Assembly (NCBI GenBank): GCA_003427395.1
Contig: BFEA01000004.1
Coordinates: 7,100,037-7,145,993, forward strand
DNA: 45,957 nt
Direction: 5' to 3'
Origin: Chara braunii
Lineage: Eukaryota > Plantae > Charophyceae
Shown here piece after piece: positions 13,346-45,957 of the stretch (the stretch's first letter is position 1; every line of letters starts with the position of its first letter). A program made the translations under genes and the position numbers. Below the pieces are notes generated by a model. That model searched no databases, had not been told where the DNA came from, and worked only from the letters and a program-made list of their open reading frames with translations.

Positions 13346-13401
13346 GACATAAGAGTTTTTGCTATGACAAAACCCGTACTGAGAGGACAGTCAGAGAGGC
13401 G

Positions 13402-19566: not shown

Positions 19567-20024
19567 CACTATGCGGCCAATCTCGGCCACCAGATCTCAG
19601 GATCATGCGATCGAGATTGACCGTTGTCGAGCGCATCGGTCCCTCAATGGGCGAGACCCTCCCAGCCGCGTCACGTAGGAGTTGGTCTTATCGCGATACA
19701 AATGGAGCTTCCATTGCCGCTCCGACCGAGTGTACCAACCATGTCTCTCGCCAGCCCCTACTACAGGATAGGGCTTATGCGAGGTACAACTTACCTCAAC
19801 TTGCGGGAACTGTCATCTCCCTTCGGTGGGCGTATCCCTGCCGAGCTACCAGTCCACACTACGAAAGTTAATCAGTTGCAACCGCAGAGGTGTGTCAGCC
19901 GAGGGCATTTCTCATACGCTGTAGCATAGGGGGTACACGCGGTCCCACGCCTCTATCGGGCCCGCATTTGGGGGCTGAAGTGCCGAGCGCTGTCGAGCGC
20001 ATCGGTCCCGCACGGGGACCCTCC
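19564..20024 (-). mobile_element. LTR 3' portion (U5-like) of the gypsy element, ending ...GTGACA at 19564
   Basis: Terminal CA abuts the unrelated U6 flank; internal direct repeat TGTCGAGCGCATCGGTCCC (~19625 and 19991); similar to the LTR remnant at 17.7 kb. Confidence 0.55.
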
Positions 20025-21676
20025 TTTATGGTGCCGGCCCTCAATCTCTGCTCAACCTCTTCACTTTCGCTTATCTCCTCTATCCTCACGCCCTGATGAT
20101 CTTCTACTTCCTGCCAAATACAGAAAGCGGCCGGGGGGGCTGGTGGAGCTGGGGCATTAGCACGCCGCAGAGCTTCTTCCCTTATCCCCCCTGGGATTCT
20201 CGGGTCTATGCACTCACCGTACATGTCGAAAAATCACCATCATAGCTTGAACTCATCAGGCAATCCTTTTCATCACTCTTCCGGACCTGACATAACTTAA
20301 TTGTGTGACCCTTTTGGCCACAATGCCAACAGATGGCATTTCTCCAATTTATCCTTCCTCTTCCATATCCTCCACCGCCTTGCTGGTCACTCTGATTCCC
20401 CGCACCGTTCCACCTGTCACTTCCTCCTCTCTGGGAGTTACTATTCGCGTTTCCTCTCCCATATCCCCCGCGGCCACCATTTCCTCGCCCTCGGCCTCAT
20501 CCTTGATTTTGTCTCCGTCCGGCGTCCACCACCTTGATTCCCTTGTGATCCTTGTGGGGCCGACTGCTGAGGTTGGCTTGGCGGTGGGTTCGAGTGACTC
20601 ACCTGTTGAGACTGGGGTCCCGACTGTTCACAGGAAGCAGTACTCATCCGCGCTCCGGCACATGATCCATGTGGCCCGCCCGTTGGCCATGGTGCATATG
20701 AATAGTGTCCACGCCAATGATTGGGAGGTCCACAACCTGGCCATGACCCATAGGGCGCTGGTGCGGCTTGACCGGACGACTCTGGGGGTGGCATCGCCAC
20801 AGCCGGCGCGGCTTGACCTTTTCCTGAGCCTTGCCCTCCTTGAGTCGTGTTCCTTGCCTTCCTTTGAGCCTTTGTCAACTTTTGTGGTTCAGGTTCCTCT
20901 TCTTCTTCTTCCTCCTCCTCTAGCACTGCCACCTTCTTTCCTTTCCCTTGGGCTTGTGGCGCCGTCATAGCCTTCTTTCTTGCCTCCTTTTCTGCATCGT
21001 GCTGGGTCACAGTCTCTTCTATCATTAGTTTGAAGTTGCCCCCATCACTAGCGATAGTATCCAAAGTCTTCCTTTTCTTCCTAGCCTGTTTCATCTGGAA
21101 GATGTCTACCTGGCCCAACTCTCCCTCTAGCACGCCTTCTTTTATGGCACCCCAAGTAAGTTTTTTTCCTGGCGCAGCTTTCTTGGTTAGCGACGAGGCT
21201 TCCCAATTCTTGAAGTGCCCCAGGAAAGTGGCACACTGTTCTTCTTCTGCCAGCCCTAGGACTTTTTTTGCCATCTTCTCAAATGCTGTGGCAAAGGCCC
21301 CTACCGTGGAGAACTCGTCCCGTCTCAACATTTCCACGTCTTCTTTTGTGAGAAGGACGTCCCCTAACTTGAAACGCCTCTGCATCTCTTCTTTAAACCT
21401 TGCCCACTCACCATTTGCGTCGGCCGCTACTTTCATTACCTCAGGTCTAAGCTCCCACCATAAGTACCTAGGCCTCAACTTGAATTTGTCTGCCTCTGAT
21501 GCCTCGCAAGTGACCTGCTCCAACAGCTCAAGCCACTCGGACACCCTATCCCCATTGAACTGGAAGATGTTAACCTTGGGCACCAGAAGCCGTGCCATCT
21601 CTCTCTTTTCCAAAGCCTTGACGAAGTCCTCCGGTGTAGCACCCGGGCCCTGCTCGATTCCATCGGAGTCCGGCAT
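20020..21676 (-). pseudogene. gag: Ty3/gypsy gag, N-terminal block (capsid-like region, Gly-rich linker, CCHC knuckle)
   Basis: MPDSDG...VPKVNIFQFNGDRVSEWL...; frameshift near 20520; CWHCGQKGHTIKLC (CX2CX4HX4C) at ~20293-20334; ends at AGTIKE. Confidence 0.88.
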
Positions 21677-22023
21677 CTTTGTCCTTTCTCAAAACCTGTT
21701 GCAAAAAAAACAATTTCGACAAACATCTTGCCGTCAAACCTCTAAACTCTCTAGTTCCATTATTCAATCGAACATACTTTTAATAACTAAGGTAGTCTAT
21801 CCGGCCTTTATATCGTAATTTCGACTCTATTATTTGAAACGAATACACACAAAGCACACTCTCAACCTTACTCGCAATCAAAAATAAATTTTGTTAGGCC
21901 ATCGAAGATAGCACAATACTCATATCATCATCAAACTTCTTCATCAAGGGTTGTTGTTTTGCCTGAATCATCAGCCTGCTCTTAACCTGGGTTCCTTCAC
22001 TGTGGACCCCGGTAGGCAGCCGA

Positions 22024-22043
22024 GATCCCCGGCAACGGCGCCA
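22024..22043 (-). promoter_or_regulatory. Primer-binding site complementary to tRNA-Asp, abnormally fused to pol instead of an LTR
   Basis: TGGCGCCGTTGCCGGGGATC is the complement of the plant tRNA-Asp(GUC) 3' end, the Athila-type PBS. Confidence 0.9.
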
Positions 22044-22740
22044 CCTCGTCTTGAAGTAGAGCATTGGCCAAGAGGTATATCCCACCTATCGACCTCTCGT
22101 GCCCTTCCACCTGTTGCGCCCCATTTTCCATCATGAGTAGGTCTTCGTGCAACTGGTATTTGTCTGCTAAGGCTAGATTCATCATCCACTGCACGTTTGA
22201 CACTCCCCATGAGTCTTCCTCAATGTAGGGCTTAAGAACTAGATCTGATCGTCGTACATGTCCTGGAGGCGCGAGCCACACAGGTTGTCCAGGAGTAACG
22301 TAGTTACCCACGGCCATCGACCAGGAGTTGATGTGAAGTCTCACATCCTCCTCACTGTCCAGAAACCCGTCGACTGGCGGAGTATCCTCGATCACTCCTT
22401 GATTATTTTTGTCCCAGTCGACTAGACTCAATCCGTCTGCTCTATTCTTATTTCCTGGAATTCGCTCTAATTCAAAATCGAACATCCAGATGTATGTTAA
22501 CCACCTGGCGATAGTCGGGTCTGATGGGGCGAAGTTCTTGAGAGAACCGGCTAGAGCAGTTGGGTCCACCCTCAACACGAACCTGTTGCCGAAGAGGTAG
22601 TTTCTAAAGATCCTTAAGCAATGGAGAACCGCCAAGGTCTCGCGCTTAAATTGAGAGTAATTTCTCTCAGTTGTGTTAAGCGTGCGACTTTCAAACCTTT
22701 GTGGCCGCTCTTCTCCGTTAAGGTCTTGCTGAATCAACAC
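22044..22740 (-). pseudogene. pol: Ty3/gypsy RNase H and linker (5' part deleted)
   Basis: RNYSQFKRETLA, LRVDPTAL, NRADGLS; ends at LLQDEVA. Confidence 0.9.
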
Positions 22741-24052
22741 ACATCCTAGCGCAGTTGGCCCTGCACAATTCCTTCTTTAGGCCCTTTATTACCAACTCCT
22801 GCTTATCTCCCCATTCCCAGTCTTGTCCTTGACGCACGAGCTTTCGAAGCTGTTCTGTCTTTGCCGCAAACCCTTTTATGAAGATCCTCCAGAACCCACA
22901 TGTCCCGAGGAAACTTCTCACCTCCGTAATAGTCTCGAATGGGGTTGGCCATTCGAGAATCTTATTGGTTTTCTTAGTGTCTGGTCGACGACCCCTCTCG
23001 TCGCACACAAACCCCAAGATGGTGGCCCCGCTCATGCAGTGTCTCGATTTAGACTCACTTGCAATGAGGTTATGCTCCTTTAGCAGGTTTAGGACTCTGC
23101 ACAGGTCTTGCACATGGTTCCAAACAAAGCGTCTAATCCCTGGCATTACCTCCTGCTCGTTCTTCTCTTTAGGCCCTTTTACGACTAAATCATCAATGTA
23201 AGGCTGAGTAATGTGAGGGCTTACTGACTGCATTGCCCTCACCATGTGCTTCTGTACCATGGCGACTGCATTTATCCACCCTTGTGGTGCGACGTTCATA
23301 TGAATTAACCCTCGAGGGGTATGCATTGTCGTCATCGGTCTGTCAGAGGGGTAAATAGGAAACTGGTCGTAACCAGAATATAAGTCTATGAGAGATATGA
23401 TGGCTCTCCCAGCGTATGCCTCTGAAAGCGCATCTGCGTTAGGGAGACTACCTGCATCTCTCATAGTTACAGCATTCAGGAGCTGCAAATCCTGTACCCA
23501 CCTCAAGGTCCCGTTTGGTTTGACGAAACAAAACCAAGGGGATGCATATGGTCCGCTCGAGTAGTCGGACACATGTGTGCGGATTTTCCCGTCAAGGTAG
23601 CTAACTACCTTTTTTTCGTCAGCCGGATTAGGGTACCGCGCGCCTCGCAAATTCCATGGCTCGTGGGGAACGGTATGTATCCTAATCATTGGGATTCTAT
23701 CCACGTCCAGACGGTCCCGTTCATCATCATTGAAGGCATATGCAGTATGCCTTCCTCTTATGGTCTCTACCATAAACCTCTCCTCTTGCGCCGTAAGGAA
23801 GCCGGGTTCCCCTATAATCAGCGTCTTTTCTGTCTCGGGAGTGATACGACATGACCCTATCTGTGCGTCCTCTCGCATTTGTCGTATCAATTCTCGTTCC
23901 CGCTCGTAATAAACTTTTTGCTCCTCAGTAACGAGTACGGGAACAGGGCGGCACTTCTGATCTACCCTCTTATACCGCCTTTGTGAACCCTGCTTGAGCT
24001 TACCCCTAAAAAGGCCGAGTTGCAGTTTGGGGCTGTGCTCCTGCGATTCCAC
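22741..24052 (-). pseudogene. pol: Ty3/gypsy reverse transcriptase
   Basis: YASPWFCFVKPNGTLRWVQD, IDLYSGYDQ, PQG, YIDD, VRSFLGTCGFWRIFI. Confidence 0.95.
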
Positions 24053-25139
24053 CTATCCTTCCAGGCACTCGATATACGAGTTCTGCCTCACCTTCACCTC
24101 TCCTCTCCATCACCTTTTCCCTGAGGGCTTCTACTGCCACAGGGTCTGCCATTCCATAGGTGGATACTATGTCCATAGCATCCCCTATATTAGTCAAGCT
24201 GAGGGAGAGGNCCTCNNATGGCTCTTCGCCTTCAAACACCTCACCCTCCAACCTCAACCTTTCTACCTCTGACTCTTCAATAGTAAAAGAGTCAGGGTTG
24301 GGCCGATTTCTTATGCTTCGTGGCCCTGTGTTCTTGCATGTGATTACCTCATAGCTCCCACACACAGGGTCACAAAGTACCAAAAACATGGTCCCATCAT
24401 GCTTATTCAGTATGACGGTCTTCCTTCAGCTCAAAAAGGATCGGCCCAATAGGATGGGATGGTCGAGATCGGTCATTACAAAAAAACAACTTCTCACTTT
24501 AACCTTGCCAATTTTTAAAACCACTCTCGATGCGGTCCCTATGAACACAGACCGACTATTTGCTCCCATTAAAACTCCATTATCCGAGCGATCAATCTCC
24601 ATCCCCAAGCGTAAAATATGTTCCTCTTTTATGAGGTTCATTTCCGCCCCAGTATCCATCATTGCCGTGCACATTTTTCCTTTTACTACTACGTCCAAGC
24701 ATCCACATGCGACGGACTTCCAATCCATCTTCGTGCCTGTCTCTGCCCATTCCGCTTCCCTGGGGATAATGGTTCCCAAGCGCACACTTGCCACTAACCT
24801 TCTGGACAATCGAGCCTTTAGCTCATCCCTCAATTTTAGAGCGGAGGCGAGGATATCTTTTAAGTTCATTAGGTCGTTATGGCCCTCAAGGAGTCAATTG
24901 ACCATTCCTTCCACGTCAAACCCCTCCTCCATTCTGACCTTATATTTTCTTCTCTTGCCCTCTTGTTCCTTACTAGCGCCGGCCTTTGCATCCCTCTTTT
25001 TGGCTATTTCTTCAGCCTTCTTGTCCTCTTCCGTCCTTAACCTTTCAACAGGTCCTCCATCTTCTCCATCGTATCTCTTGCCCTTACCAAATTATCATCT
25101 TCTCCTTCGCCGTCCGATTCAACCACTATGGGTTCCTCC
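24006..25139 (-). pseudogene. C-terminal block of the gag-protease ORF (aspartic protease)
   Basis: Starts EEPIVVESD; MDTGAEMNLI active site; ILLGRSFL; in-frame TGA stops (probably from CGA); ends ...TRPF*. Confidence 0.9.
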
Positions 25140-25871
25140 CCTTTGGGTCATCTCTGCAGTCTGCTCCTCTTTCCGTTGAGTCCTGCCAATATGCTGGTCC
25201 TCCCGTCTCTCCTGCCTCTGGGACCTGTGCTCTCTCCTCTGGCCATCCCTCTGAGCTCCTGAGGTCATGCCCTGCTCAGAGGTTCTCCTCTCTGCAGTTT
25301 CTGGCTCCTTCCTCTTTCTTCCCATACTCCTCTCGTCAGCCTGACGTGCCGGAGTATAGTGGTTCCAAAGCAATTTCTTGCAATGGCCCCAGTTCTGGGC
25401 AGGCTCCACAATAGATCTGACGAACGGCCTGAGGTATTTCCTCACAAACAGAATAAAACTCCTCACCCTCTGGCTTGGTGGCTCGTTGATGCTATCTGCA
25501 AACTCGTCGTAGCCCTTCAGGAACTCCCACAGGTTAGTGGCATCAAAACGAATGGGCCGTCCATCTCTGCCTAGCGGCGATGGGTGCAAGCCCTCCATCT
25601 TCTGCTCAAAATCCTGCCAGGTCAATGACTCCCTGACGAAGTTGGCAAGGGGCTGTGCCCACTCGCCTGCTCCTCGCACCTCCCGCAGCATCCTGCTACT
25701 ATCCCATCCAAACTCATGACCGTGCCTCCTGAACCCAACCATGAACAGCTCAACGTTGTCTCCTGTATAAATGGGTGGCCAGTCCTCTCTCCTGGCCCTC
25801 ACCTGCGCCCCCTGTCTGGTAACCCCCAGTGGGGTTTCCACTGGCCCTGCCCCTCCCCTCCCTCTTGGCAT
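25135..25871 (-). pseudogene. N-terminal block of an extra ORF (ORF3) downstream of integrase; Gag-capsid-like
   Basis: MPRGRGG...PPIYTGDNVELF...RFDATNLWEFLKGYDEF...W; preceded by a pyrimidine tract and TGCAG acceptor ending at 25897. Confidence 0.65.
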
Positions 25872-26136
25872 GGCTGCCCAAAAACTGGTGTCAAGCCTGC
25901 ACAACAAGGAAGAGACAGACAAAAGCACACAAAGGGTAAGTAGGTTCGACAAACAAAACAGGAGACAGACATTCCCCTCCCATATCTACCTTAACTACAT
26001 ATACATACATGTGTAAATACACGTATATAAATCTATCTTAATACTATACTCTATCACACCATTCTACTGAGAAACATACACAATTTTCCCATATATATAT
26101 ATATATATATCTAGTATTACTTAACAGAAAGGGATT

Positions 26137-27520
26137 CTAAATTGTGGGACCCATGCTCACCTCGTCTCGAGCGACAAACTTCTTCAATCTCGAGCCTGAC
26201 ACCCAATCTTTCCAGGCAGTCCCATTCAGCTCTTCAATCTGGTATGCCCCATGCTCTCCACTCCTCGTGACCATGTATGGTCCTAACCACCTCTTGTCCA
26301 ACTTTCGCGACCACTGCTTCTCTAAGGATGAATGGTATAGTAGCACAACGTCGCCCACCTTGAGAGGCTCCTTCCTTACCCTTGCCATCTTATCCCACCT
26401 GAACTTATCCCTCTGTCCGGTGTCAGCCACCTTACTCGCCGCACTTTCAATTTTGTCCTCTATGACATTAATCTGATGAACCCTTAAGTCTAGCAGTTTC
26501 TCAAATGACAAGTTTGTCTCGAGGTCCTGCCGCCTCCAAGTCTTTAGGAAACTTTCGATAGGGAAGGTCGCATGTCTGTCATACCACAACGTTGCTGGCG
26601 CGTAGTTGGTGCTTCTTCTGACAGTGATTTTATCCACGAAGAAGGCGACCCTTAGGAAGTTAGGCCACTGATTTGGCCTACCATTCGTCCACTTAGCGAG
26701 GAGATTCGTAATCGTACTATGACCCCTCTCCACAGGTGCATTAGCTTGAGGGTGCGCCGCAGTAGTATACTCTGCGATCACTCCATACCCTCTCAGCAGT
26801 TCTTTCACCTCAGCACAAGTGAATTCGGACTCTCTGTCCATTACGAATTTGGAGACAAAAGGGTAGCGGAGGTAATACTCCTCAATGCATCGAGCCAAGG
26901 TCTCACCAATTTTTGTGCGTATGGCTCTGCCATCTACAAAACCGGAGAGGTTGTCACGTGCATCGAAGATGAAGTTATACCCACCTACTCCCAGCGGCAT
27001 TGCCAATAAGTCCAAATGTACGACCGCCCCAACCTCACGTACGTACCTTGGGTGAAGCGGCTCCCTAGGTCTAATGGAAGACCGCTCCTGGCATGAAACA
27101 CATGACTTGCAATAATCGTTGATCATTCGTCCCATGCCATCCCAATAGTATAGCTCGTGTATTTTGAGGAAAGTTGTATCCTTACTCCTATGTCCACCTG
27201 CCTTACCATCATGTAGGGCAGTTATGACGTCGATCTGACGAGCGATGCCGCAGACTACCCTTCTTGGAGTCTTCCCTTTACTCTTCATAAATAGATGGTC
27301 ATCCCTTACTAAGAAGTTTGGTCGCATCTTGAGAACTTTCTCGCACGTATCTTTCTCTCATTTCGCACGAAAGGAGCATTCCTAATTCCAGATATATCCC
27401 GTTATACTCCTCCGTGCGAAAAACCTCTTTTATCTCTCCCTCTTCAAAATCGTGGTCCTCTCCTTCGTGAACTATATTCTCATTCTCGCCTTGCCGTTGA
27501 TCCCCGATCCTTGCCACCTC
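26137..27520 (-). pseudogene. pol: Ty3/gypsy integrase (HHCC, DDE, GPY; no chromodomain), with a frameshift near 27310
   Basis: LHDGKAGGH...CVSC; VHLDLL; FVMDRESEF; PVERGHST; WLGPY. The upstream linker starts EVARIGDQ. Confidence 0.93.
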
Positions 27521-28850
27521 CGCTGGCAAGTAGCATTACAACTGACAATCATTCATACGATGTCGCTCACAATCCCGTCTAGGCAATATCCTGCATCAGT
27601 ATCTGAAGTAGTAAACGACAGCTCCTAGAATTTGCAATTGCTGCTGCTAAAACCATCCTCTCTCAGCAGCAACGTCGCCGCACAAATTCAAACAACAGTT
27701 GTCGACAGGCTAAGTCTCAGTAGCAGACCCAATGATGACCTCCATCATAGTAGTACCTCATGCTTAACAACACCATCAATACTTCAAAAGAAAGAAAAAG
27801 GGAGACTCGCTGCTCTGTTGTGCTGCTGTAAATAAGACAACAATGTCGGAGAACTCAATCAACATAGCAGTTCGCAGACTTTCAGGGCATCAATAACCAC
27901 CAAAATAGCAGTTGCCGATCCACAGACCATGTGCATGACTCAAGAATACTTCAACTGTTGGTGTCGCAACTTAAGTAAGTCTGTTGCTGCGAAAATCCAA
28001 ATCAGGCCTCCAGGGGTCCGCTACAGCCTTCCAAAGGCCTGCTACAACGCCGTAACAGTAGCCAAACATCAATCCACTGCTGCTAGAAGTCCCTTCTTAT
28101 AGACAGATGTTTGCTGCAATACCAAAAAAAAAAGGTCCACAATGACTCAAATCTGGGTGAAGTAGCAACGGAGCAGGACCTAGACCAATCGTGAAGAGAA
28201 AAGTCCAACCCACTGCATTATTCATCAATGCACACAGTGGAACTGATTCCCCCACTAAAGTACGACCAGATACAATGTCAGATTTTGTACTGAGCTAAAC
28301 TGTGCAACTCAACACCTTGGTTCCTCTCGTATGGCGGCTGCTCCAACACTCATCATCTTGCAAAACAAAAGTAAATCTTCGGCTAGAACATGGGAAGATG
28401 CATGCCCTTCTTGCCTGATATCTTAACTTCCGTTCGTCCCGTATTACCGCCACTGCCAGCCAAGTACACCCTTCCCTCCATTTTCTTGTATTCCACTTCC
28501 TCCTCCTCTACCTATTTCCGATGTGCCGCCAAGCAAACTGCGGACCAGCCAGCAACCGTAGTGATACAATGTGAATGTATATGTGCTATTTTTCCGGTCC
28601 GGTACAACCTTCCCACACCTGTCTACATGACTACACCCACGCTCGCGCACACATGCACACACCTGCACACTCACCACCATGCTCACGCTCCAGCGCATAC
28701 GTGCTTGTGCCTACATGCTCACCCGTATGCACGCGTGATTACACCTTCCTGCTTCTCTTCTTCCCCTCTACCTCTATTCCTCCTCTAAAAGTTGTCATGT
28801 CCAAGGATATGCCGCGGCACATTCTTCAATAATCTACGAGCAAGTGCTTG

Positions 28851-28895
<45 letters not shown>

Positions 28896-31800
28896 TGTGC
28901 CTTCTCTCTCTCCAGGTACGGGCATACCTGGCCATTTCACCTAACAGGAGGGGGAGAATACTTAGCGTTCAAGGCATGATTATGGTCGAGATCCCCCTGA
29001 AAAGGCAAGCACGAGGATGAGCCTACTCACGAAGACATAGCTGAGTCACGATGGTGATGATGAGCCTGCTCCCGAAGACATAGCTGAATCACGATGGTGA
29101 CGATGAGCCTGCTCCCGAAGACATAGCTGAATCACGATGATGACGATGAGCCTACTCCCGAAGACATAGCTGAATCACGATGGTGGGCTCAAGCAACAGA
29201 ACCACGAAATCTGCAGCGTCAGAATCGGGATGAGGAGCACCAACCCGTCACACAGTCCCCCACCAGAAAATGCAGAATGAGAATGAATCTGATGCAAAAA
29301 CGCAGGAAAATACACCGCCGAAATTCCTTCCCTGCGTTTGCTTTCTGCCAAGCACAACGCAGCCTCTGACTCACACAACAGAAAAACGGCTACCCTATCG
29401 CAGAATCTAACCGCGCCAATCGATTCCTGGTGCCTCAAAACCCCAAGTTAGGCTCTTATTTCGCTCGAATCCGTAAAGAAACGAATGAGATAAGTGTTTT
29501 CTCCTCCTTGCCATATCCTCTTTCCCGTCACCTCCGNGCACTCTCTTCATCTCCTAACTTTAATCCAACTAACGTTTCACCAAAAGTGAACCCAAATTCG
29601 GGGTCGCCATAGTCAATAACCCTGAAATAGACTCTTCTTCGGCCCCATTTCATCAAGTAACGGCCTATATCTCATCTCTTCACCCCCTGTTTCCCATTCT
29701 TCTTGTTCTCCTATTTTGAATGCACCTTGCTCATACCCACGTCCAGATCCATTTGCCCTCCTTGGTTCTTTAGTCAGGCCAGCGCAATCTCCATCTCCGT
29801 TCTCTCTCTAGGCCGGCCAGCGCAGTCTCCTTTGTCCCCCTCGAAGTGGGAATCTGCCTCGTCTCCCTCGAAGTGGGAATCTGCCTTGTCTCCCTTCATA
29901 CCTGCTCTCCCTCGACACCATCTTTCCCTTCTTCTTCCCCGTAGCCCATTACTCCATGAGCCTCTCCCGCCAGCCAAAGTACGCCCAGATGATAGCGCAC
30001 GGTCCAACAATCTTGAGCACCTTAATGGAAGTGAAATCCTGATCGCCGGACCTCGCTGTCCTATATAGCCTAGAATGGCATATTTGCATAGCTTACTCGT
30101 GCCACACTCAAGGAATGAATCNGGCCAAATCTAGGCACTAGGTCCATTCANCCCAAGAAAAANTGTAGTGCAGCTCCTCAAAAGGAGAAGAGGGGCTGAG
30201 AAAAGAAATACAAATAAAATAAAAATAAAAGTTGGGCTTGGTGAAATGCCTAAACGATGGGGTCGTGGCCCACCTAGGTGCCTTCTCCGGATCGGACTCT
30301 GATCTATATTTCAACAGTCTGTGAGTATGCCAATCGAGCTAGGCTTGTTGGTACTTGCTAGCATTGCTGCAGCCCCCACCAAAATCCCTCTGGTCCGCTG
30401 TTCCCAGGCGTAGCTCCCCTACTACCGCCCCCAACAGGCATGCTCACATCCACTCCTCACAGCGGATCGTGGGCAGCGGACGTAGCCTCCCTCTGGCTGC
30501 GTCCTGCTTCGAGGCCTGTAGCATGAGCCTAGGCGGGACGGATCCCAACACGGATCTTGGTGGTCATTATTCAAATGAGAATTTTTGAAGATGGAAGTGG
30601 GGAGGGGCTCTATGTGACCGCAGCTGCAGCCGGCGGCCTCCGCCCTGGTGTGCCCGCCCCATTGTGCCCAAGCGCAGTCTACCATCTTTCTGGTCTCAAC
30701 GGGAATGCTCACACTGCGGTCCCAAATCTGCAAAATGTGCAGATTTTGGAACAGACTAGTTCGGGGTTTTGAGCATGGTTCAGGTCACACTACTGTACCT
30801 TTTCAGGTTGGATAGAGCCCTGGCTGTCTGGAGCATTGGCGAACCGATACTTTGCTGGTCACCCGGCGCCATCCACATATTGTGCAAAAAAATCCAGGTC
30901 CCGAAATAAATAAATAAAAATAAATAGGGCATTTCCCTTGCCCCGCGGCTCCACAGGCCGCTGACAAAATGGGCACACCAATGGTGCATCCGGGACTTTG
31001 GCAAAAATCTGCGTGACCAGTCTTGTCCCTCATGGGCCCCAACGGGCATGCTCCCACTCAGTTCCTACTGCAGATCGTGGTTGGCGGACACCGCACTTGC
31101 AGAGAGGCGCCCAATGCTCAACTTTTCCTCCGTCTCGCGGTCAGTCACCCATCAGTTGTCATGCACGTTGACTTTCTCCGTCTGCATTTCAACAATTCAT
31201 GGGCGTCAATCGAGCTACGCTCGCTGGACTCCTCAAACAACTCCGATACCGGCATTGTCACCGCATCCCAGAAACGGGACCGACAACAAAAAAAAATAAT
31301 TAGATAAAAATAAAATAAATAAAAAAATAAAAACACAAGCTTCAGGAACTCGCGCTTTGGGGAAGAGAGATTGTCAGTACCACTCTTAGTTCCGCCAACC
31401 GGGCCTACGGATGGGCCGACAACAAAACCAAGGGGGATAGCCCTGCCGGGCCCTCAACCCCTCGATATCTTCAGGAAATGCTCCTCCGCTCTTGTAATGC
31501 TGGGTGCTGGCCTCCATCCCGAGATCTGCTGGCTGAAAGTTCAGTACGTTAACCAATAGGGCTAAGCCCAAGCCTGACCTTAGCATACGCGAATTCGTAT
31601 ATCAGTAGTATTCGCAGCCTGTCTGGGCCTGTAGTTAATGCACTGAGGCCGCCGCTTGCTCCGCCTTCGAGCCTAAGGCCTCGCAATGCCGTGCTTGGCT
31701 GCTTGGGAGGAAAGTTATCGCTCAGATCACCATGCCCACTGCCCCGCCACACTGCGGCCGCGGCCGAGGCTTTCATAGCCCTCTACACCCGTCAAACGAG

Positions 31801-33521
31801 CGCGCTCTTACCCCCCTTCGGTTGGAAAGACCCCGACTTTTGCTCATGCCGTACCAAGTTAAGCTTTCCTCGGCTCCCACTGTNNNNNNNNNNNNNNNNN
31901 NNNNNNNNNNNNNNNNNNNNNNNNNNNNNNNNNNNNNNNNNNNNNNNNNNNNNNNNNNNNNNNNNNNNNNNNNNNNNNNNNNNNNNNNNNNNNNNNNNNN
32001 NNNNNNNNNNNNNNNNNNNNNNNNNNNNNNNNNNNNNNNNNNNNNNNNNNNNNNNNNNNNNNNNNNNNNNNNNNNNNNNNNNNNNNNNNNNNNNNNNNNN
32101 NNNNNNNNNNNNNNNNNNNNNNNNNNNNNNNNNNNNNNNNNNNNNNNNNNNNNNNNNNNNNNNNNNNNNNNNNNNNNNNNNNNNNNNNNNNNNNNNNNNN
32201 NNNNNNNNNNNNNNNNNNNNNNNNNNNNNNNNNNNNNNNNNNNNNNNNNNNNNNNNNNCTATCCAACCCTCTAGCTTATTTCTAACTGGGACCGCCGAGC
32301 GGTCTGTTTTATTCACACTAGTCAAACATTTAGCTAACGCGTGCCCACAAAGTGCATGCCCGCACACACTCCCTGAATTAACCATGCGTGCGCTCGCCAT
32401 TTCCTGAATTCCGAGAGTCAGTCGCGACCGAGCGAAAAACACGCCGCTCTCTCAAATACCATCAAGTGTGCTCCCGCTGCGGGGTGCAAAAATGCGCACA
32501 ATTACCCTTGTAAGGGTAATGGTGTCGACAGTTTTTCCGGACCCTATTAAGCGACGTCCCCGTCGCGTCGAACAATCAAAGGCTATAAGCACTCCAAATC
32601 CCATCTGCTGACGAGGTAGTAACCATTCCGACTAGCCGGCTCGACTCCGTTAGAGGCATCTTGTCAATCTACCCCAGTCACGACGTTCCACTGCCACGGT
32701 TTTAACCTGGGTCTCCCACATCTTGGCCTAGGAGTTAGGGTGTACTGTCATCCGTACTACAGCGTAATACCTGCTTCCAAGTAGTAGATTGGTAGCCCTC
32801 CTCCCTTCGTCGTAGACATCTGCCGGTTTATCGTTGGGTGTCCTAATGAGTCATCGTCCCGCATACGGGGTCATAACTCAGGACGCGGGCCCTAACCGAG
32901 ACCTCTCTAAAAAACCAGGGCACCTTTAGTCCCCAAAATGGTAATTTTTACCATCTCAAATATTTCTCATAATAACTGTCCACCCTGGTGTCTACACAGG
33001 AGGTTTCAGGTCTCCATCTTGGCCCACCGCAGAATGGTCGATCACACCGTATCCACGGCTTATCACGCTGTTATATAGCGATGATGCCCTCGTTGGTTGC
33101 GCAACGATAGGCGTACTTACCAACTCTTAGACTCATTCAACCCCACTGACCCCCCCCCTAGCTATCCCTCTCCGGGCGGCCGACCCTTCAAGATTTAACC
33201 ATTGGTGAGTCGTGGTCTCGCTGCCAAGTTGCGCCGGTCAGCGGCCCTCGCTGGGAGTTAGGTTCTATAGTTCCAACGATGCTAAGTATAGCCCCTTAGC
33301 TTGGCCTCACAAAATATGTCCCCCTAGACTAACCATTGTGGTCTGACAAATAGCTCTGGACAACCTCTAGATTCACATACCCTCCCAACCTCGGACCATG
33401 TGGGGGATAGTGTCTCTTTCTCTTTGTGTTCCAGCAACTTTCTCTCTTATCCACAAGGTCGTGCCCCCCCTTTACTTTGATCAGAACAGGCGGCGGTCAC
33501 ACGTCTTAGGGACACCTCACA
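27521..33521 (-). mobile_element. Long non-coding LTR-like region (may include nested pieces; contains a gap)
   Basis: Candidate LTR start TGTGAGGTGTC at 33521, just after purine-rich GATGGGAGA and downstream of the ORF3 3' UTR; TATA-like TATATAG at ~30061-30067; no real ORFs. Confidence 0.4.
29016..29185. repeat. 43-bp tandem repeat x4
   Basis: GATGAGCCT.CTC.CGAAGACATAGCTGA.TCACGATG.TGA. starts at 29016, 29059, 29102 and 29145. Confidence 0.92.
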
Positions 33522-34577
33522 AAAGTCTCCCATCATGATTGCCAGAAAATTTCCATCCATAATTCTCACAAAGATTTTGGTCTGCCCTCGCCAGACTTTC
33601 ACTCATACATACAATTTCCTCATCATTATAGCAACTCATTTGAGTGCGCCCTCATAGTTCCACTCTTATATATATGTGGAGAACCTAACGGTCATTGAGT
33701 CTCCTTCTCTCGTTTTCTTATGAACCATACAAAAGACACAACTTTTAGTTGTGACCTCTCCATTTATCATCACTCAAATTCTTTTGAACTCAACACATAA
33801 TCCCTTCTTCCAAACAAACGTGAGGTGCACTCTCTTTCACTGTACTTATGACTTTGTCTGTTCTAATGACAGATATGCTTAAGTACAGAGGAAAATAGTG
33901 CAGGTCAGGTCATTTCCACAACATTTATTCTCGTCACAATAATCATTCATATGGGCAAGTCAACAACTGAGAGTGAGCGTGACACACCACACAAAAAAGA
34001 AAAAAAATCTGAGATTCGCACAAATACACAGAACGCGGGGACCTTGCAAATAAGCAAAGGTTCCTGTTAATATCGAAAGGATCAAAATATCGTACAAAAG
34101 AAATAAAATATCGTACAAATTACCGGGGTATCGTACCAAGTGCCACAGTATCCAACCAAAGATCAAGGTACCTGAAAAAAGTCAAAATATCCGAGAAAGT
34201 CAAAAAACAAAAGAGAGTCAGAGTATCCACACCTCACATCACTCACACACTGTCCGACTCACCCTGCTCTGAAAGAGAAAGAATCATAAAATCACACAAA
34301 AGCACTACCTAGAAGCTAGAAACACTCCACACCACACTAAAAAAAGAGAAAGGAAAACCGAAGTAGTTACTGTCATACACAATACTATCCTATGTACACT
34401 AAGTCTGAAAGTCTATATGCGAAAGTAAACATCTTTGTAATGACTCAATTAACTGATGTACATGGGCGTGATCCAATCCTCCATGTGTTCTCCTATATAC
34501 AGTCATCCATCAGTAGTGAGTCAGAGATGTTCTACACATGTCAGAATCTAGACTTTTTCGGACTCTATTCGTAAATC

Positions 34578-36155
34578 CTACTCCTGATCACTCATGTCCT
34601 CCTGCAGTTGCCTATACAACTGTGCCCGTATCCCATCACGAGTCTTCAGGATCAGGTTTCCATCTCCGTCCCTGCGCACGCCAGATGGATCCCATGAAAA
34701 CAAACCATCGGCCTCATCCTTGAGGCTTTTGGAACAGGTTTTCTGTGGGTGCTTGCCTTTCTTGCAGTAGAAGCATCTTCCAAACTTCTTCTGCTCCATC
34801 TTATCAGCTGCATGGGAGGGTACAAATGAGGGGTTTGCTGTGGCCTCACTGGTGACCTCCTGCTGTGGGTGCTCTGGGGGAATGGGGCATGCTGCTCTGT
34901 CATCTGTTTGCGCCATCTGCTCACTCACTCGCTCCTCTGCCCCGGATCCAGTGGCCCAAGATCCCAGTGCATCCTCCAGACCTGCAACCAGAGGCATATC
35001 CTGAGGTGGTGGGGTCTTCTAAGAGACCTCCCGCTCCTCCCTCTCCTCAGCCTCCGCCATGGCCTGTCCCACACTCTCCTGAACCTTCTGTCGCCCCACA
35101 GTCTCCCCCTGAGTCATGGGAAGTGCAGCCTCATCCATCGCATCCTCTGCTGGTGGCCTCGCCTCATGTGCCAAGACTGTGGGCATCCTCCACTCAAACC
35201 CCCCAGTCTCTGACCCCGTCCCTGCTAGAGCCTCCTTAGGCTGTAACATCTCCTTATCTAGCAGGGGGATTTCCTCATCCTTCTGCTCGTTTGCCCTCTC
35301 TTCCACCTTCTGACACTTGAAGGCCTCCTCTGCAGGCTGCTTCCTGATCTTAAGCCCCTGGACCTCTGTCCAATCCACCACCGTAGTCGGCGTCTGTTGT
35401 ACACATTTGGCCTCAAGATCCTCTATCCTTTTCTCCCACTTGGCTTCCTTTGCCTGAAAAATATTACGTTGTACCTGCAAGTAGGTCCTCAGGGTGTCAT
35501 TGACTTTGTTGAGGGTCTGGTTGACCTGTCTGATGGCCTCGTTGCCTGCCCACGCCTTCTCCACCTCAGTCTTTATGGCTTCCATCTTCTTGTCCTGTCC
35601 CTCAAACTCCTTCTTGAGATCACCAATTTCTTTCTGCCAGTCCATTTTCTGCTCATGAGACGCCCGCGCCACCCTTGTCAACCTCTTCTCCATCTTTTCA
35701 TCAGAAGTCTTGGCCGTCGCAAAGCCCTCCTTCATAAGGCCCTTCAGGCTAATCAAGTCTGTAGACACCAGCTTAACCCCCATCTCTTGATGCTGCTCCC
35801 TGGACCTCCCTGTTGCCTCCAACAACTTATCAAAGTTGTCCCAAGCCTCCGTGAAAAAAGGAGTCTCATCGTCTTGAGTGGGTGAGCCATTCCCCTCTCT
35901 GTCTTCTAGTACCACAGGCTGCTCTCCCTGCTCAACTTTCTCGTGCAGCTCCGCCATGTTCTTGAGTCTGATTTGGACTCTGATTTCTCTCTCTATTGCT
36001 GCTCTCTCTTCCTTGTCCTGTTCCTTCTCTCTCGCAGCCTGATCCTCATCCTGTCCCTGACCCTGTGTCCTATGAGACGTCTCTGGCTGCATGCCTGGCC
36101 TAGGAGTGGCCTCAGGTATCTGAGCAGGTTGAGGAGGTACATCTGATCCCTCTGA
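34578..36155 (-). pseudogene. C-terminal block of ORF3 (coiled coil plus CCHC zinc knuckle)
   Basis: Frame is open from 36155; E/K/Q-rich heptad region; CFYCKKGKHPQKTC (CX2CX4HX4C); disruption near 35010. Linking it to ORF3N is inferred. Confidence 0.65.
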
Positions 36156-39100
36156 ATGCCTTCAATGATGATGAACGGGGCCGTCTAGACGTGGATAAAA
36201 TCCCGATGATTAGGATACATACCGTTCCCCACGAGCCATGGAATTTGCGAGGCGCGCGGTACCCTAATCCGGCTGATGAAGAAAAGGTAGTTAGCTACCT
36301 TGACGGAAAAATCCGCACACATATGTCCGACTACTCGAGCGGACCGTATGCATCCCCTTGGTTTTGTTTCGTCAAACCAAACGGGACCTTGAGGTGGGTA
36401 CAGGATTTGGAGCGCCTGAATGCTGTAACTATGAGAGATGCAGATAGTCTCCCTAACGCAGATGCGCTTTCAGAGGCATGCGCTGGGAGAGCCATCATAT
36501 CTCTCATAGACTTATATTCTGGTTACGACCAGTTTCCTGTTTACCCCTCTGATAGACCGATGACGACAATGCATACCCCTCGAGGGTTAATTCATATGAA
36601 CATCGCACCGCGAGGGTGGACAAATGCAGTCGCCATGGTCCAGAGGCACATGGTGAGGGCAATGTAGTCAGTAAGCCCTCACATTACTCAGCCTTACATT
36701 GATGATTTAGCCGTAAAAGGGCCTAAAGAGAAGAACGAGCAGGAGGTAATGTCACGGATTAGACGCTTTGTTTGGAACCATGTGCAAGACCTGTGCAGGG
36801 TCCTAGACCAGCTAAAGGAGCATAACCTCACTGCAAGTGGGTCTAAATCGAGACACTGCATGAGCGGGGCCACCATCTTGGGGTTTGTGTGTGACGAGAG
36901 GGGTCGTCCACCAGACACTAAGAAACCCAATAAGATTCTCGAATGGCCAACCCCATTCAAGACTATTATGGAGGTGAGAAATTCTCGAATGGCCAACCCC
37001 ATTCAAGACTATTATGGAGGTGAGAAGTTTCCTCGGGACATGTGGGTTCTGGAGGATCTTCATAAAAGGGTTTGCGGCAAAGACGGAACAACTTCGAAAG
37101 CTCGTGCGCCAAGGACAAGACTGGGAATGGGGAGATAAGCAGGAGTTGGTAATAAAGGGCCTAAGGAAGGAATTTGAATAAGGGGGTCTAGTACTGGGAG
37201 TACCAGACCACTCGACAGTAATGACACGACCTTTTATTGTAGAAACTGATGCAGGGTCAACTGCACTACGAGGTGTGTTGATTCGGCAAGACCTTAACGG
37301 AGAAGAGCGGCCACTAAGGTTTGAAAGTCCCACACTAAACATAACTGAGAGAAATTACTCTCAGTTTAAGCGCGAGACTTGGCGGTTCTCCATTGCTTAA
37401 GGATCTTTAGAAACTACCTCTTCGGCAGCAGGTTCGTGTTGAGGGTGGACCCAACTGCTCTAGCCAGTTCTCTCAAGAATTTTGCCCCATCAGACCCGAC
37501 TATCGCCAGGTGGTTAACATACATCTGGATGTTCGATTTTGAATTAGAGCGAATTCCAGGAAATAAGAATAGAGCAGACGGATTGAGTTGAGTCGACTGG
37601 GACAAAAAAAATCAAGGAGTGATCGAGGATACTCCGTCAGTCGACGGGTTTCTGGAAAGTGAGGAGGATGTGAGACTTCACATCAACTCCTGGTCGATGG
37701 TCGTGGGTAACTACGTTACTCCTGGACAACCTGTGTGGCTCGCGCCTCCAGGACATGTACGACGATCAGATCTAGTTCTTAAGCCCTACATTGAGGAAGA
37801 CTCATGGGGAATGCCAAACGTGCAGTGGATGATGAATCTGGTCGTAACAGACAAATACCAGTTGCACGAAGACCTACTCACGATGGAAAATGGGGCGCAA
37901 CAGGTGGAAGGGCACGAGAGGTCGATAGGTGGGATATACTTCTTGGCCAATGCTCTACTTCAAGACGAGGTGGCGCCGTTGTTGGGGATCTCGGCTGCCT
38001 ACCGGGGTCCATAGTGAACGAACCCAGGTTAACAGCAGGCTGATGATTCAGGCAAAACGACAACCCTTGATGAAGAAGTTTGATGATGATATGAGTATTG
38101 TGCTATCTTCGATGGCTTAACAAAATTTATTTTTGATTGCGAGTAAGGTTGAGAGTGTGCTTTGTGTGTATTCGTTCCAAATAATAGAGTCGGAAATACG
38201 ATATAAAGGCCGGATAGACTACCTTAGTTATTAAAAGTCTGTTCGATTGAATAATGGAACTAGAGAGTTTAGAGGTTTGACGGCAAGATGTTTGTCGAAA
38301 TTGTTTTTTTTGCAACAGGTTTTGAGAAAGGACAAAGATGCCGGACTCCGATGGAATCGAGCAGGGCCCGGGTGCTACACCGGAGGACTTCGTCAAGGCT
38401 TTGGAAAAGAGAGAGATGGCACGGCTTCAGGTGCCCAAGGTTAACATCTTCCAGTTCAATGGGGATAGGATGTTGAGTGGCTTGAGCTGTTGGAGCAGGT
38501 CACTTGCGAGGCATCAGAGGCAGACAAATTCAAGTTGACGCCTAGGTACGTATGGTGGGAGCTTAGACCTGAGGTAATGAAAGTAGCGGCCGACGCAAAT
38601 GGTGAGTAAGCAAGGTTTAAAGAAGAGATGCAGAGGCGTTTCAAGTTAGGGGACGTCCTGCTCACAAAAGAAGACGTGGAAATGTGGAGACGGGACGAGT
38701 TTTCCACGGTAGGGGCCTTTGCCACAGCATTTGAGAAGATGGCAAAGAAAGTCCCAGGGCTGGCAGAAGAAGAACAGTGTGCCACTTTCCTGGGGCACTT
38801 CAAGAATTGGGAAGCCTCGTCACTAACCAAGAAAACTGCGCCAGGAAAAAACCTTACTTGGGGTGCCATAAAAAAAGGCGTGCTAGAGGGAGAGTTGGAC
38901 CAGGTAGACATCTTCCAGATGAAACAGGCTAGGAAGAAAAGGAAGACTTCGGATACTATCGCTAGTGATAGGGGCAACTTCAAGCTAATGATAGAAGAGG
39001 CTGTGGCCCAGCACGATGCAGAAAAGGAGGCAAGAAAGAAGGCTATGGCGGCGCCACAAGCCCAAGGGAAAGGAAAGAAGGTGGCAGTGCTAGAGGAGGA

Positions 39101-40020
39101 GGAAGAAGAAGAAGATGAACCTGAACCACAAAAGTTGACAAAGGCTCAAAGGAAGGCAAGGAACACAACTCAAGGAGGGCAAGGCTCAGGAAAAGGTCAA
39201 GCCCCGCAGGCTGTGGCGATGCCACCCCTAGAGTCGTCCGGTCAAGCCGCACCAGCGCCCTATGGGTCATGGCCAGGTTGTGGACCTCCCAATCATTGGC
39301 ATGGGCATTGTTCATATGCACCATGGCCAACGGGCGGGCCGCATGAATCATGTGCTGGAGCGCCGATGGGTACTGCTTCCTGTGGACGGCCGGGACCCCA
39401 GTCTCAACAGGTGAGTCACTTGAACCCACCGCCAAGCCAACCTCAGCAGTCGGCCCCACAAGGATCACAAGGGAATCAAGGTGGTGGACGAGGACAAAAT
39501 CAAGGATGGGGCCGAGGGCGAGGAAATGGTGGTCGCGGGGGATATGGGAGAGGAAACGCGAATAGTAACTCCCAGAGAGGAGGAAGTGACAGGTGGAACG
39601 GTGCGGGGAATCAGAGTGACCAGCAAGGCGGTGGAGGATATGGAAGAGGAAGGATAAATTGGAGAAATGCCATCTGTTGGCATTGTGGCTAGAAGAGTCA
39701 CACAATTAAGTTATGTCAGGTCCGGAAGAGTGATGAAAAGGATGGCCTGATGAGTTCAAGCTATGATGGTGATTTTTTCGACATGTACGGTAAGTGCATA
39801 GACCCGAGAATCCCAGGGGGTATAAGGGAAGAAGCTCTGCGGCGTGCTAATGCCCCAGCTCCACCAGCCCCCCCGGCCGCTTTCCGTATGTGGTAGGAAG
39901 TAGAAGATCATCAGGGCGTGAGGATAGAGAAGATAAGCGAAAGTGAAGAGGTTGAGCAGAGATTGAAGGCCGGCACCATAAAGGAGGGTCCCCGTGCGGG
40001 ACCGATGCGCTCGACAGCGC
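36156..40020 (+). mobile_element. Inverted duplicate of 19987-23739 (RT-RNaseH-PBS-gagN-LTR stub)
   Basis: Collinear reverse-complement match from ATGCCTTCAATG to CGACAGCGC; PBS at 37971-37990 with two C>T changes; independent indels and stops. Confidence 0.95.
36935..37026 (+). repeat. Perfect 46-bp tandem duplication that frameshifts the RT copy
   Basis: ATTCTCGAATGGCCAACCCCATTCAAGACTATTATGGAGGTGAGAA twice. Confidence 0.95.
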
Positions 40021-45373: not shown

Positions 45374-45957
45374 GGGTCACCAGCCCGTACGTACAGGCGT
45401 TAGGGGTCCCGTACGGGGTCCAAACTTGACAGCGTTCGGCCCCCGCCAAAAATTATTTCGGGGCCTAAAAATAACTCTTTTTTCTGAATTTTGTTTTGTG
45501 AGTTCTCTATGACATGAGGTACACGCCTATAAAGTTTCAAGTCATTTGGCTCAACCAAATCAGAATAAAAAATCGCCAAAGATGGCGGTCTCAAAACGTG
45601 CTCACCCACGTTTTTTTCCACCTTTTTCTTTTTGTTTTCACTTTAGTTCAGGTTCTAAACAATTTTATTATTTTTTGAAACTTTCTTAGTGGGTTTTGCA
45701 TTATGTGAAGTACACATCTGTAAATTTTCAGGGCATTTAGCTATGCCAAAAAAACATGAAAAATCGCCAAAGATGGCGGTGTCGAAAACGTGCTCGCGCA
45801 CTGAGTCTCGCTAAATTTAAATTCTTTTTTATTTTTTGTTATTTTTATTATTAGAATTTGTTTTTCATATTTTATTTTTATTTCAAATTTGGTAAGGAAT
45901 TTGGATGCAATGCTCAAGAAAATCTTGTTTAATTTATTTTTCTTCATAACATATATT
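45372..45957 (-). mobile_element. hAT-type MITE related to 12517-13345, inverted and truncated by the window edge
   Basis: Terminus TAGGGTCACCAG; body matches the reverse complement of ~12660-13290. Confidence 0.85.

Follow-up and report, generated by a model that had tools for sequence, protein, structure and literature searches.

Plant retrotransposons commonly carry extra open reading frames (ORFs) behind pol, and the literature describes the origin of these frames as mostly unknown (PMC7264820). One such frame, ORF3, in a 45,957-nt stretch of Chara braunii DNA (the window) raises the question of whether a second Gag-type gene can occupy the env position of an LTR retrotransposon, and what it would do there. 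Within the window lies a scrambled and no longer functional Ty3/gypsy LTR retrotransposon, one copy of a high-copy family (hundreds-fold DNA depth), whose relatives, where they carry a species name, are from Chara braunii. Pfam identified gag followed by protease, reverse transcriptase (RT), RNase H, and integrase, the order being read in relatives and scrambled in the window copy. The features of this copy are as follows.

19987..19990, no strand: GCGC target duplication, left copy (right copy at 40017-40020)
19991..20020, minus strand: final ~30 nt of the LTR (CA end), left end of the integrated block
20015..21676, minus strand: gag, with two-lobed capsid, G/R-rich stretch, CCHC knuckle (20331-20290), and tail; frameshifted
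22025..22043, minus strand: primer binding site (PBS), tRNA-Asp type; 19/19 letters match the FIDEL PBS (PMC2844528 Table 1)
22039..25137, minus strand: gag-pol linker, protease, RT, and RNase H (Pfam)
25137..25871, minus strand: N-terminal third of ORF3 (ORF3N), starting at its own ATG and truncated after 245 aa by a rearrangement junction
25347..25562, minus strand: lobe 2 of the ORF3 capsid region, aa 104-175, predicted to be of N-lobe type and repeating lobe 1 internally
25581..25787, minus strand: lobe 1 of the ORF3 capsid region, aa 29-97, predicted to be of N-lobe type
25897..25945, minus strand: pyrimidine tract plus AG, splice acceptor predicted from sequence, 25 nt 5' of the ORF3 ATG
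26137..27520, minus strand: integrase and the linker between RNase H and integrase, with a change of frame near 27360 (Pfam Integrase_H2C2, rve, SH3_Tf2-1)
27521..34577, minus strand: 3' non-coding region, probably with nested repeats, N gap inside (DNA depth 37-8700)
34578..36155, minus strand: C-terminal two thirds of ORF3 (ORF3C), 525 codons, assigned through a contig bridge
34581..34775, minus strand: CCHC knuckle and Gag-type tail of ORF3
35391..35708, minus strand: predicted coiled coil of ORF3 (heptad count only)
36156..40016, plus strand: inverted copy of 23739-19991 (partial RT, RNase H, PBS, gag, LTR end), right block end

The integrated block, 19991-40016, has TG...CA ends with GCGC on both sides; both ends are LTR right ends, and the sequences flanking the duplication, when joined, form a single high-copy repeat (loose ends at 40016). 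The PBS directly adjoins the LTR end, DNA contigs connecting 40014-40015 to 37968. About 110 aa of the gag-pol linker are absent at 25046, the gag of relatives scores under the curated cutoff for Pfam Retrotrans_gag, and 27521..34577 has no match to any protein of the relatives. The tRNA-Asp PBS is shared with Athila and FIDEL, but Athila makes 5-bp target duplications, compared to 4 bp at the single site seen here. The non-chromoviruses Phygy and Selgy also make 4-bp duplications, and GCGC fits the Phygy NCGN preference at this one site. However, their PBS is of the tRNA-Trp or tRNA-Ala type and they have no extra ORF.

The two halves of ORF3 lie 9 kb apart and in reversed order in the window copy, with ORF3C upstream of integrase and ORF3N and carrying a single in-frame stop (35021-35019). 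The reversed block order is most likely due to serial RT jumps on one RNA: the enzyme would have made four jumps on that molecule and afterwards turned back onto the strand it was making, all ahead of integration. A literature search on such scrambles found nothing relevant. If read rightly, the copy is a rare fossil of serial template jumps in reverse transcription. An assembly artifact as the main cause was rejected in view of the target duplication and of the inverted arms (36156..40016 versus 23739-19991), which differ at 136 of 3,740 aligned letters, 103 of them transitions, while having two junctions in common. However, among the listed read pieces none spans a junction, and one N gap (31884-32258) lies within the block, between ORF3N and ORF3C.

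We examined whether the separated halves constitute one gene. Integrase ends at 26137, and 265 nt further the ATG at 25871 starts ORF3N on the minus strand, with no LTR or PBS in between. Both motifs that the first-pass annotation had quoted for a sense ORF after integrase, PIYTGDNVELF and FDATNLWEFL, are present in ORF3N, and the C-X2-C-X4-H-X4-C knuckle (34775-34734) and tail that it had described for the other block were found at 36155-34578, also on the minus strand. The exact border between the halves is crossed without a break by 18 of 64 relatives. These relatives are predicted gene models, with skipped introns that may not be real, rather than DNA of intact copies. A single 573-nt contig also maps to 25135-25289 plus 35742-36149. 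ORF3N and ORF3C are therefore one ORF of ~770 aa after integrase in relatives, as had been proposed. ORF3N was followed by ORF3C in 13 of 15 first matches. Matches to a gag query continued into ORF3 in 31 of 49 cases, always with ORF3 behind gag, and among 82 distant matches pol lay upstream of ORF3 in 58 and downstream in 2. One apparently spurious match from the wide search (P0144) was left out of later counts, from the 76-row HHalign comparison onward.

ORF3 is thus not in the usual place of Gag, 5' of pol and leading into protease, but is a sense ORF between pol and the 3' LTR. It holds this place in two subfamilies, with no pol behind it. The env-like ORFs of Athila, Calypso, and Bagy2 are similar in being extra sense ORFs from pol to the 3' end with a predicted spliced mRNA; ORF3 differs in being Gag-derived and in having no membrane segment. 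The best 19-residue hydropathy was 0.64 in the window, and none of 96 relatives exceeded 1.6. None of 12 domain rows for plant extra ORFs in PMC6317226 (additional file 4) is a Gag or capsid domain, in a list of domains found in at least 5 elements at E<=1e-10 from which elements with repeated domains had been removed. No description of a second Gag-type gene of this kind was found in the literature searched, and a metagenome scan with one of the alignments gave 88 pattern matches, none of which was confirmed.

The capsid fold that the first-pass annotation had suspected is supported by modeling. An AlphaFold2 model of the start of ORF3 (pLDDT 80) has two capsid lobes, both nearest to the N-lobes of Arc and Ty3; a single-sequence fold (pLDDT 43.5) was discarded. 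Lobe 1 matched the dArc1 N-lobe (Z 9.2, rmsd 2.1, 69 aligned) and lobe 2 the human Arc N-lobe (Z 8.4, rmsd 2.0, 67 aligned). N-lobes superposed at rmsd 1.9-2.6 and C-lobes at 3.0-4.9, the PEG10 C-lobe still reaching Z 7.7 at rmsd 4.4. Values of Z 8-9 are modest for helical bundles. In a wide structure search, retroelement capsids filled the first 22 of the 50 rows. However, Foldseek against PDB and BFVD returned nothing at E<=0.001, capsids heading the weak rows. A PDB sequence search with ORF3 gave no matches, and no Pfam family reached its cutoff on ORF3 (zf-CCHC_5 at E 0.056 only; DUF4100 absent). In profile comparisons (HHalign), lobe 2 matched lobe 1 (P92) and lobe 1 of the element's own Gag (P74). 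Lobe 1 had no match to Gag lobe 1 (P1.5), neither ORF3 lobe matched Gag lobe 2 (P0.3-0.8, with shallow profiles), and the ORF3 and Gag capsids had zero BLASTP similarity. The predicted build leans toward an N-lobe twice with no C-lobe, in contrast to the Arc, PNMA2, and Ty3 capsids, which are the best structural matches of both lobes but consist of an N-lobe and a C-lobe.

The tail connects ORF3 to Gag at the profile level. The ORF3 tail matched the element's own Gag tail with HHalign probability 94.5 (E 7.7e-8, 69 columns), compared to 0.1-1.3 for all four control profiles; 18 close rows had given P0.2, the signal emerging with 76 rows. An ORF3-tail HMM scored a median of 27.5 bits on 14 gag tails and -0.35 on reversed sequences. 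The similarity of the tails that had first been noticed by eye is thus beyond chance. HHalign of two whole-protein alignments was uninformative because both contain the same polyproteins. The gag tail originally quoted (KSDEKDGL) comes from near 39700-39850, in the inverted copy; at 20330-20130 the other copy has KDCL and shifts frame. The long coiled coil that had been claimed amounts to no more than a crude heptad pattern in a charged helical stretch within 36155-34578; the best a/d register is 57% hydrophobic and the other six are 10-47%. Relatives also have basic patches after the lobes and before the knuckle. The capsid fold, CCHC knuckle, and Gag-type tail together support a Gag-derived ORF3. 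The same tail type occurs in fungal and other streptophyte Gags bearing DUF4100 (TM 0.67-0.73), so capture is a possible origin; a search on DUF4100 found nothing relevant in the literature. The proposal of an anciently duplicated gag paralogue is supported as to Gag derivation and age; ORF3 may stem from duplication of the element's own gag or from capture of a related one.

This age is indicated by co-divergence with Gag and Pol, that is, by inheritance with the element. ORF3 is retained across subfamilies that are only ~31% alike, and relatives show conserved columns. At 30-40% ORF3 capsid likeness, the Gag capsid is 45%, RNase H 56%, and integrase 66% alike. Rank correlations of ORF3 divergence with Gag/Pol were 0.68-0.78, and none of 500 permutations was as high for integrase and RNase H. 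Where relatives have a start Met ahead of the capsid domain, it lies 29-32 residues ahead in 56 of 57. None of the three outcomes set beforehand as refuting came up: halves from different elements, the gag of a nested element, or no capsid fold.

Relatives of the dead window copy transcribe ORF3. Sense poly(A) reads fell on ORF3 in two of three raw RNA runs, picked by species label, with gag/pol near silent; RNA depth was low, the reads derive from other copies, and oligo-dT is biased to 3' ends. In run X13 the depth on ORF3C was 1.4-4.3, in the sense direction only, compared to 0 in 11 of 11 RT/RH/gag bins; run X12 had ORF3 depths of 1.1-4.9, and in run X11 the whole stretch received 2 reads, with ORF3N receiving none. 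DNA depth, the control for this contrast, was not lower on pol. Splice acceptors are predicted ahead of both gag (21697) and ORF3 (25898), the one at ORF3 being conserved, and 52 of 57 gene models join ORF3 through a fixed leader of 7-8 codons with varied upstream pieces. No spliced reads joining to the ORF3 acceptor were seen in the raw RNA runs. ORF3 is likely, judging from the gene models and acceptor, made from its own spliced mRNA.

ORF3 is very probably a functional, Gag-derived accessory gene. We tentatively favor a positive adaptor for assembly, linking element RNA to assembling Gag. ORF3 N-lobes would enter the N-lobe rings of Gag in the manner of RTL8 with PEG10; the coiled coil would render the protein multivalent, and the knuckle would grip genomic RNA. 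The net effect may be to favor packaging or to shape the particle for a large genome. A separate 2.3-kb gene purely harmful to its carrier should vanish by deletion, in line with a positive role, but ORF3 RNA with gag/pol quiet suits an inhibitor at least equally.

As a self-encoded inhibitor, one of the roles first proposed and one that we consider doubtful, ORF3 would insert N-lobes lacking a C-lobe into Gag rings and keep the lattice from closing, which would restrict copy number or keep the family silent in vegetative tissue. Its predicted N-lobe-only build would suit this role, as would ORF3 RNA where gag/pol RNA is missing, and RTL8 is reported to bind the PEG10 N-lobe and to reduce particle release (PMC11684626). 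However, copies that delete a pure inhibitor should outcompete others, and ORF3 is kept as its own gene in such divergent subfamilies of a family at hundreds-fold depth. The conserved knuckle, tail, and coiled coil would also be superfluous for simple poisoning. Such an inhibitor would be RTL8-like, not p22-like. Like Ty1 p22/p18, ORF3 is element-encoded, Gag-related, and without attached Pol, and may likewise come from a subgenomic mRNA; the earlier suggestion of an analogy to p22 failed in build, ORF3 having no profile match to a C-lobe and being a separate gene without BLASTP similarity to the Gag capsid. RTL8 (FAM127), which acts on PEG10, is a Gag relative resembling a capsid N-lobe. It is, however, encoded by the host, is 113 aa long, and lacks a zinc finger, whereas ORF3 lies in the element and measures ~770 aa, with a knuckle and a coiled coil besides its two lobes. 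The atlas lead was FAM127A-like at 0.76, a lead only.

It is unlikely that ORF3 is a minor capsid protein of a two-component capsid, its tandem N-lobes tethered to RNA and made from spliced mRNA, setting shell size or curvature for a genome well over 10 kb.

Quite unlikely is a regulator resembling Rev or CERV, the first product of spliced mRNA, that would bind intron-containing genomic RNA in the nucleus, export it, and pass it to Gag. The acceptors predicted before both gag and ORF3 imply that genomic RNA would retain introns, and the basic patches beside the lobes and knuckle in relatives would fit. The LTR retrotransposon Cer1 of C. elegans also has an accessory protein, CERV, which is translated from a spliced mRNA (predicted for ORF3) and is required for export; PMC10309623 describes CERV as novel rather than as a Gag paralogue, which would set it apart from ORF3. 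However, export alone leaves two conserved capsid lobes unexplained.

Caulimoviruses have a coiled-coil virion-associated protein, a model for a movement or targeting adaptor that would coat particles for passage via plasmodesmata or across giant algal cells. For 3' ORFs of plants, a function at plasmodesmata or as chaperones has been suggested (PMC7264820), and the env position, predicted splice, and soluble, coiled-coil protein with capsid-type lobes would agree with it; the lack of a movement-protein family match in Pfam and of a membrane segment makes this role highly unlikely. That ORF3 is a functionless passenger, merely a gag that belongs to a nested element or was captured with one, is the least probable, since, although the shared tail type makes capture possible and the relatives are gene models, only 265 nt without LTR or PBS precede its ATG, its place is identical in two subfamilies with no pol behind, and co-divergence, conserved columns, and expression largely refute the functionless part.

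In ORF3 the origin of an extra ORF is readable: an entire Gag retained as an additional gene, with a predicted doubling of its N-lobe, and probably switched on separately. These results suggest that surveys based on Pfam, or discarding elements with repeated domains, would overlook such genes. Beside p22 and RTL8, ORF3 offers a soluble, small, and testable system for an element regulating or reshaping its own capsid.

ORF3, an open reading frame of ~770 aa that follows integrase in relatives of the element, is split in the dead window copy into two minus-strand halves, ORF3N (25137..25871) and ORF3C (34578..36155). The sequence features around its start are as follows:

26137, minus strand: end of integrase
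25 nt before the ORF3 ATG, minus strand: pyrimidine tract and AG (predicted splice acceptor)
25871, minus strand: start ATG of ORF3N, 265 nt after the integrase end

Both capsid-like motifs quoted in the first-pass annotation are present in ORF3N, opened by this ATG. The interval 36155-34578 (minus strand) comprises 525 codons with one in-frame stop, and its translation has a charged helical middle followed by the quoted CCHC knuckle and tail. In the window copy, ORF3C is found upstream of integrase as well as of ORF3N; the two halves are 9 kb apart, and the intervening DNA contains an N gap. The gene order in relatives mapped on the window is gag, protease, RT, RNase H, integrase, ORF3N, and ORF3C; these relatives are gene models, which leave out stretches freely and are therefore evidence of order, not of splicing. 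ORF3N matches continued into ORF3C in 13 of 15 cases, and the exact border was spanned by 18 of 64 proteins. Among the 49 proteins found by gag alone, 31 extended into ORF3, all with gag first. The first set of ORF3 relatives (15/15) and the gag relatives (49/49) are named Chara braunii predicted proteins. A wide search added 83 proteins; 9 of 10 checked were from Chara braunii, and the tenth, a spurious match, was dropped. In the remaining 82, a second group whose ORF3 capsid part is only ~31% alike, pol domains preceded ORF3 in 58 and followed it in 2. Evidence independent of gene models comes from a 573-nt contig of sequencing run X5, whose letters 1-155 match 25135-25289 and whose letters 166-573 match 35742-36149. 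The border-spanning relatives and this contig indicate that ORF3N and ORF3C are one ORF after integrase and part of the element. ORF3 as the gag of a nested element fails, as no LTR or PBS lies between integrase and the ORF3 ATG, where there is no room for one, and its position downstream of pol is fixed.

The AlphaFold2 model of ORF3 (69-row alignment; residues 30-175 at pLDDT ~81-95, mean 79.8) has two helical lobes. A structure search against 48,161 solved chains placed retroelement capsids in all of the top 22 rows. For lobe 1, the fit to the N-lobe of dArc1 had Z 9.2 and rmsd 2.1 over 69 residues, and for lobe 2, that to the N-lobe of human Arc had Z 8.4 and rmsd 2.0 over 67/67, Z values that are modest; C-lobe fits were poorer (Z 7.7 and rmsd 4.4 for PEG10, Z 7.0 and rmsd 4.2 for Arc, Z 5.7 and rmsd 4.9 for Ty1 p22). 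The capsid fold proposed earlier is thus borne out by the predicted model, which best fits retroelement capsid N-lobes. Foldseek with this model gave no match at E<=0.001, and BLASTP found no similarity between the ORF3 and Gag capsids. Profile comparison matched lobe 1 to lobe 2 (P92) and lobe 2 to lobe 1 of the element's own Gag (P74, E 2.8e-5). Lobe 1 against own Gag lobe 1 gave only P1.5, and lobe 2 of own Gag was matched by neither ORF3 lobe (P0.3-0.8); no control profile (integrase, RNase H, or coiled coil) exceeded P2.8. These results agree with the structural fits for the ORF3 lobes. The ORF3 knuckle and tail matched those of Gag at P94.5. In Atlas searches with stored relatives as queries, the lobes led to gag-type families alone, as leads (0.76), and the tail to fungal and streptophyte DUF4100-bearing proteins (TM 0.67-0.73).

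Judged by profiles and predicted structure, ORF3 is Gag-derived. Of the earlier proposal of an anciently duplicated gag paralogue, the Gag origin stands (knuckle and tail match, lobe fold), but duplication is no better placed than capture. Because fungal and streptophyte DUF4100 proteins share the tail type, it is wider than the element family, and a related gag may therefore have been captured just as well as the element's own duplicated. Atlas also has a 158-member streptophyte cluster (752 aa, 54% with DUF4100) aligned over both ORF3 lobes at TM 0.38, under the bar, which may be the wider ORF3 family. A more distant 146-aa protein, P0148, has one and a half ORF3-type lobes; its gene number differs by two from that of P0067, an ORF3 protein, and the scaffolds of the two are equal in length. 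It is possibly a third Gag-like ORF or another family.

In a tree, the tails of 17 gag and 35 ORF3 sequences (67 columns; gag rows chosen by motif, few from the second subfamily) separated into two groups at 100/100. Pairwise identity of the ORF3 capsid tracked that of integrase (rho 0.71, 17 proteins), RNase H (rho 0.78, 27), Gag capsid (rho 0.76, 30), and protease (rho 0.68, 24); in permutations for integrase and RNase H alone, the observed value was reached in 0/500. Since kin share identity, the correlation indicates joint descent only. The ancient origin claimed for ORF3 is supported by the tail separation and this tracking. Gag capsid identity is 45% where ORF3 identity is 30-40%, and ORF3 therefore evolves slightly faster, with 36 columns retained at 75% or more. 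A metagenome scan for ORF3 found no locus.

The element is of the Ty3/gypsy class, its PBS is of the tRNA-Asp type (PMC2844528), and the 4-bp NCGN-type duplication is common to the element and Phygy (PMC6317226). Known plant extra ORFs are described as env-like or antisense, or their origin is unknown (PMC7264820), and the extra-ORF domain rows have Gag in 0/12, in a survey that discarded elements with repeated domains (PMC6317226). CERV is not described as Gag-like in the abstract of PMC10309623, whereas ORF3 is Gag-derived. Among the entries listed by a literature search, none concerned an element that carries another gag behind integrase. The Chara genome paper was absent from these entries, and its supplements may describe the ORF3-bearing family. 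The second gag-derived ORF after integrase is real.

A start Met was shown by 57 of 96 proteins carrying the ORF3 domain. Entry was via a fixed 7-8 codon leader in 52 of these, with 43 different pieces upstream of it; another 2 start at Met, and the other 3 differ. The gene predictor sees the same putative splice acceptor in both subfamilies. A 1-nt indel within the leader among DNA contigs suggests that it is untranslated. In the oligo-dT raw reads of run X13, ORF3C and its 3' flank had a depth of 1.4-4.3, in the sense direction only, and 0/11 RT/RH/gag bins were covered, figures that apply to these regions. Run X12, also oligo-dT raw reads, gave sense depths of 1.1-4.9 on ORF3C and 1.0-2.5 on ORF3N, with 0-1.7 on pol and gag, both strands. 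X5 contigs, whose RNA origin is a guess, had depths of 4-36 on ORF3 and 0 on integrase; DNA depth on pol was no lower. In X11, of which 6% was read, 2 reads fell on the stretch. These depths are low, derive from reads of other copies, take strand from the usual library convention, and come from oligo-dT libraries favouring 3' ends. Spliced reads were absent among those listed, the likely donor lying beyond the stretch compared. Upstream of gag, in the 21695-21872 region, a second acceptor is predicted 19 nt from the ATG; paired with a possible donor near 21871, it would define a 5' leader intron.

The scrambled block 19991-40016 has the same LTR right end at both termini, inverted and flanked by GCGC copies; in DNA contigs, this end is joined to the PBS in other copies, and both flanks together read as one repeat. 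On the plus strand, which corresponds in direction to first-strand synthesis, 30 nt of LTR end are followed by gag as far back as the PBS, RNase H as far back as the gag start point, mid-ORF3 as far back as the RNase H start point, and the 3' region as far back as mid-ORF3; the sequence closes by repeating its initial 3.7 kb as a copy. Every block ends at the start of the earlier one, borders abut exactly in relatives, and junctions mostly share 4-6 nt words (GGAGG; TGGC). This order probably reflects RT jumps on one RNA: RT would jump serially, used parts having already been removed by RNase H, and a fold-back at 23739 would follow. The rival is repair-type template switching in the genome. 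Mis-assembly is opposed by the arms (19991-23739 and 36156-40016), which share two junctions yet differ at 136/3740 letters (103 transitions), evenly spread; among the read pieces listed, none bridged a junction. The two arms could be used like an LTR pair for dating the insertion.

The target (19960-19990 and 40017-40070) is a transcribed repeat of very high copy number, other copies of which carry an A-rich tail, and 148 DNA contigs and 127 RNA reads continue from 40016. At 19625-19643, 350 nt outside the block, the LTR right-end motif occurs a third time as an exact copy. A 50-nt scrap at 41959-42009 matches the gag-pol linker part absent at 25046, and the 3' non-coding region has a four-copy 43-nt tandem repeat (29013-29185). 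Elsewhere are a 676-codon open frame without Pfam match (203-2233, plus strand), an inverted pair with internal repeats, 80% alike and 32 kb apart (12791-13269 and 45434-45916), and a degraded RT frame (13180-14091).

Retroelement capsid N-lobes make rings and C-lobes connect them (PMC11684626). On its predicted architecture, which combines two N-lobes with a coiled coil and a knuckle for RNA binding and apparently lacks a C-lobe, and with no Pol attached, ORF3 alone should not form a normal shell and would bind Gag rings and RNA. Such binding could make ORF3 an inhibitor, a doubtful reading. Ty1 p22 arises from within gag as an internal product (PMC8458377; PMC4599808); ORF3, by contrast, is a separate ORF after integrase. 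Deletion should remove an inhibitor that is encoded as a gene of its own, whereas ORF3 was retained. A part in export is unlikely, one in movement quite improbable, and a functionless ORF3 slightly more so. An env role is ruled out because 0/96 relatives have a membrane segment. Since ORF3 has been retained through deep divergence in a high-copy family, we tentatively prefer, on the modelled architecture, a positive accessory role for it in the element.
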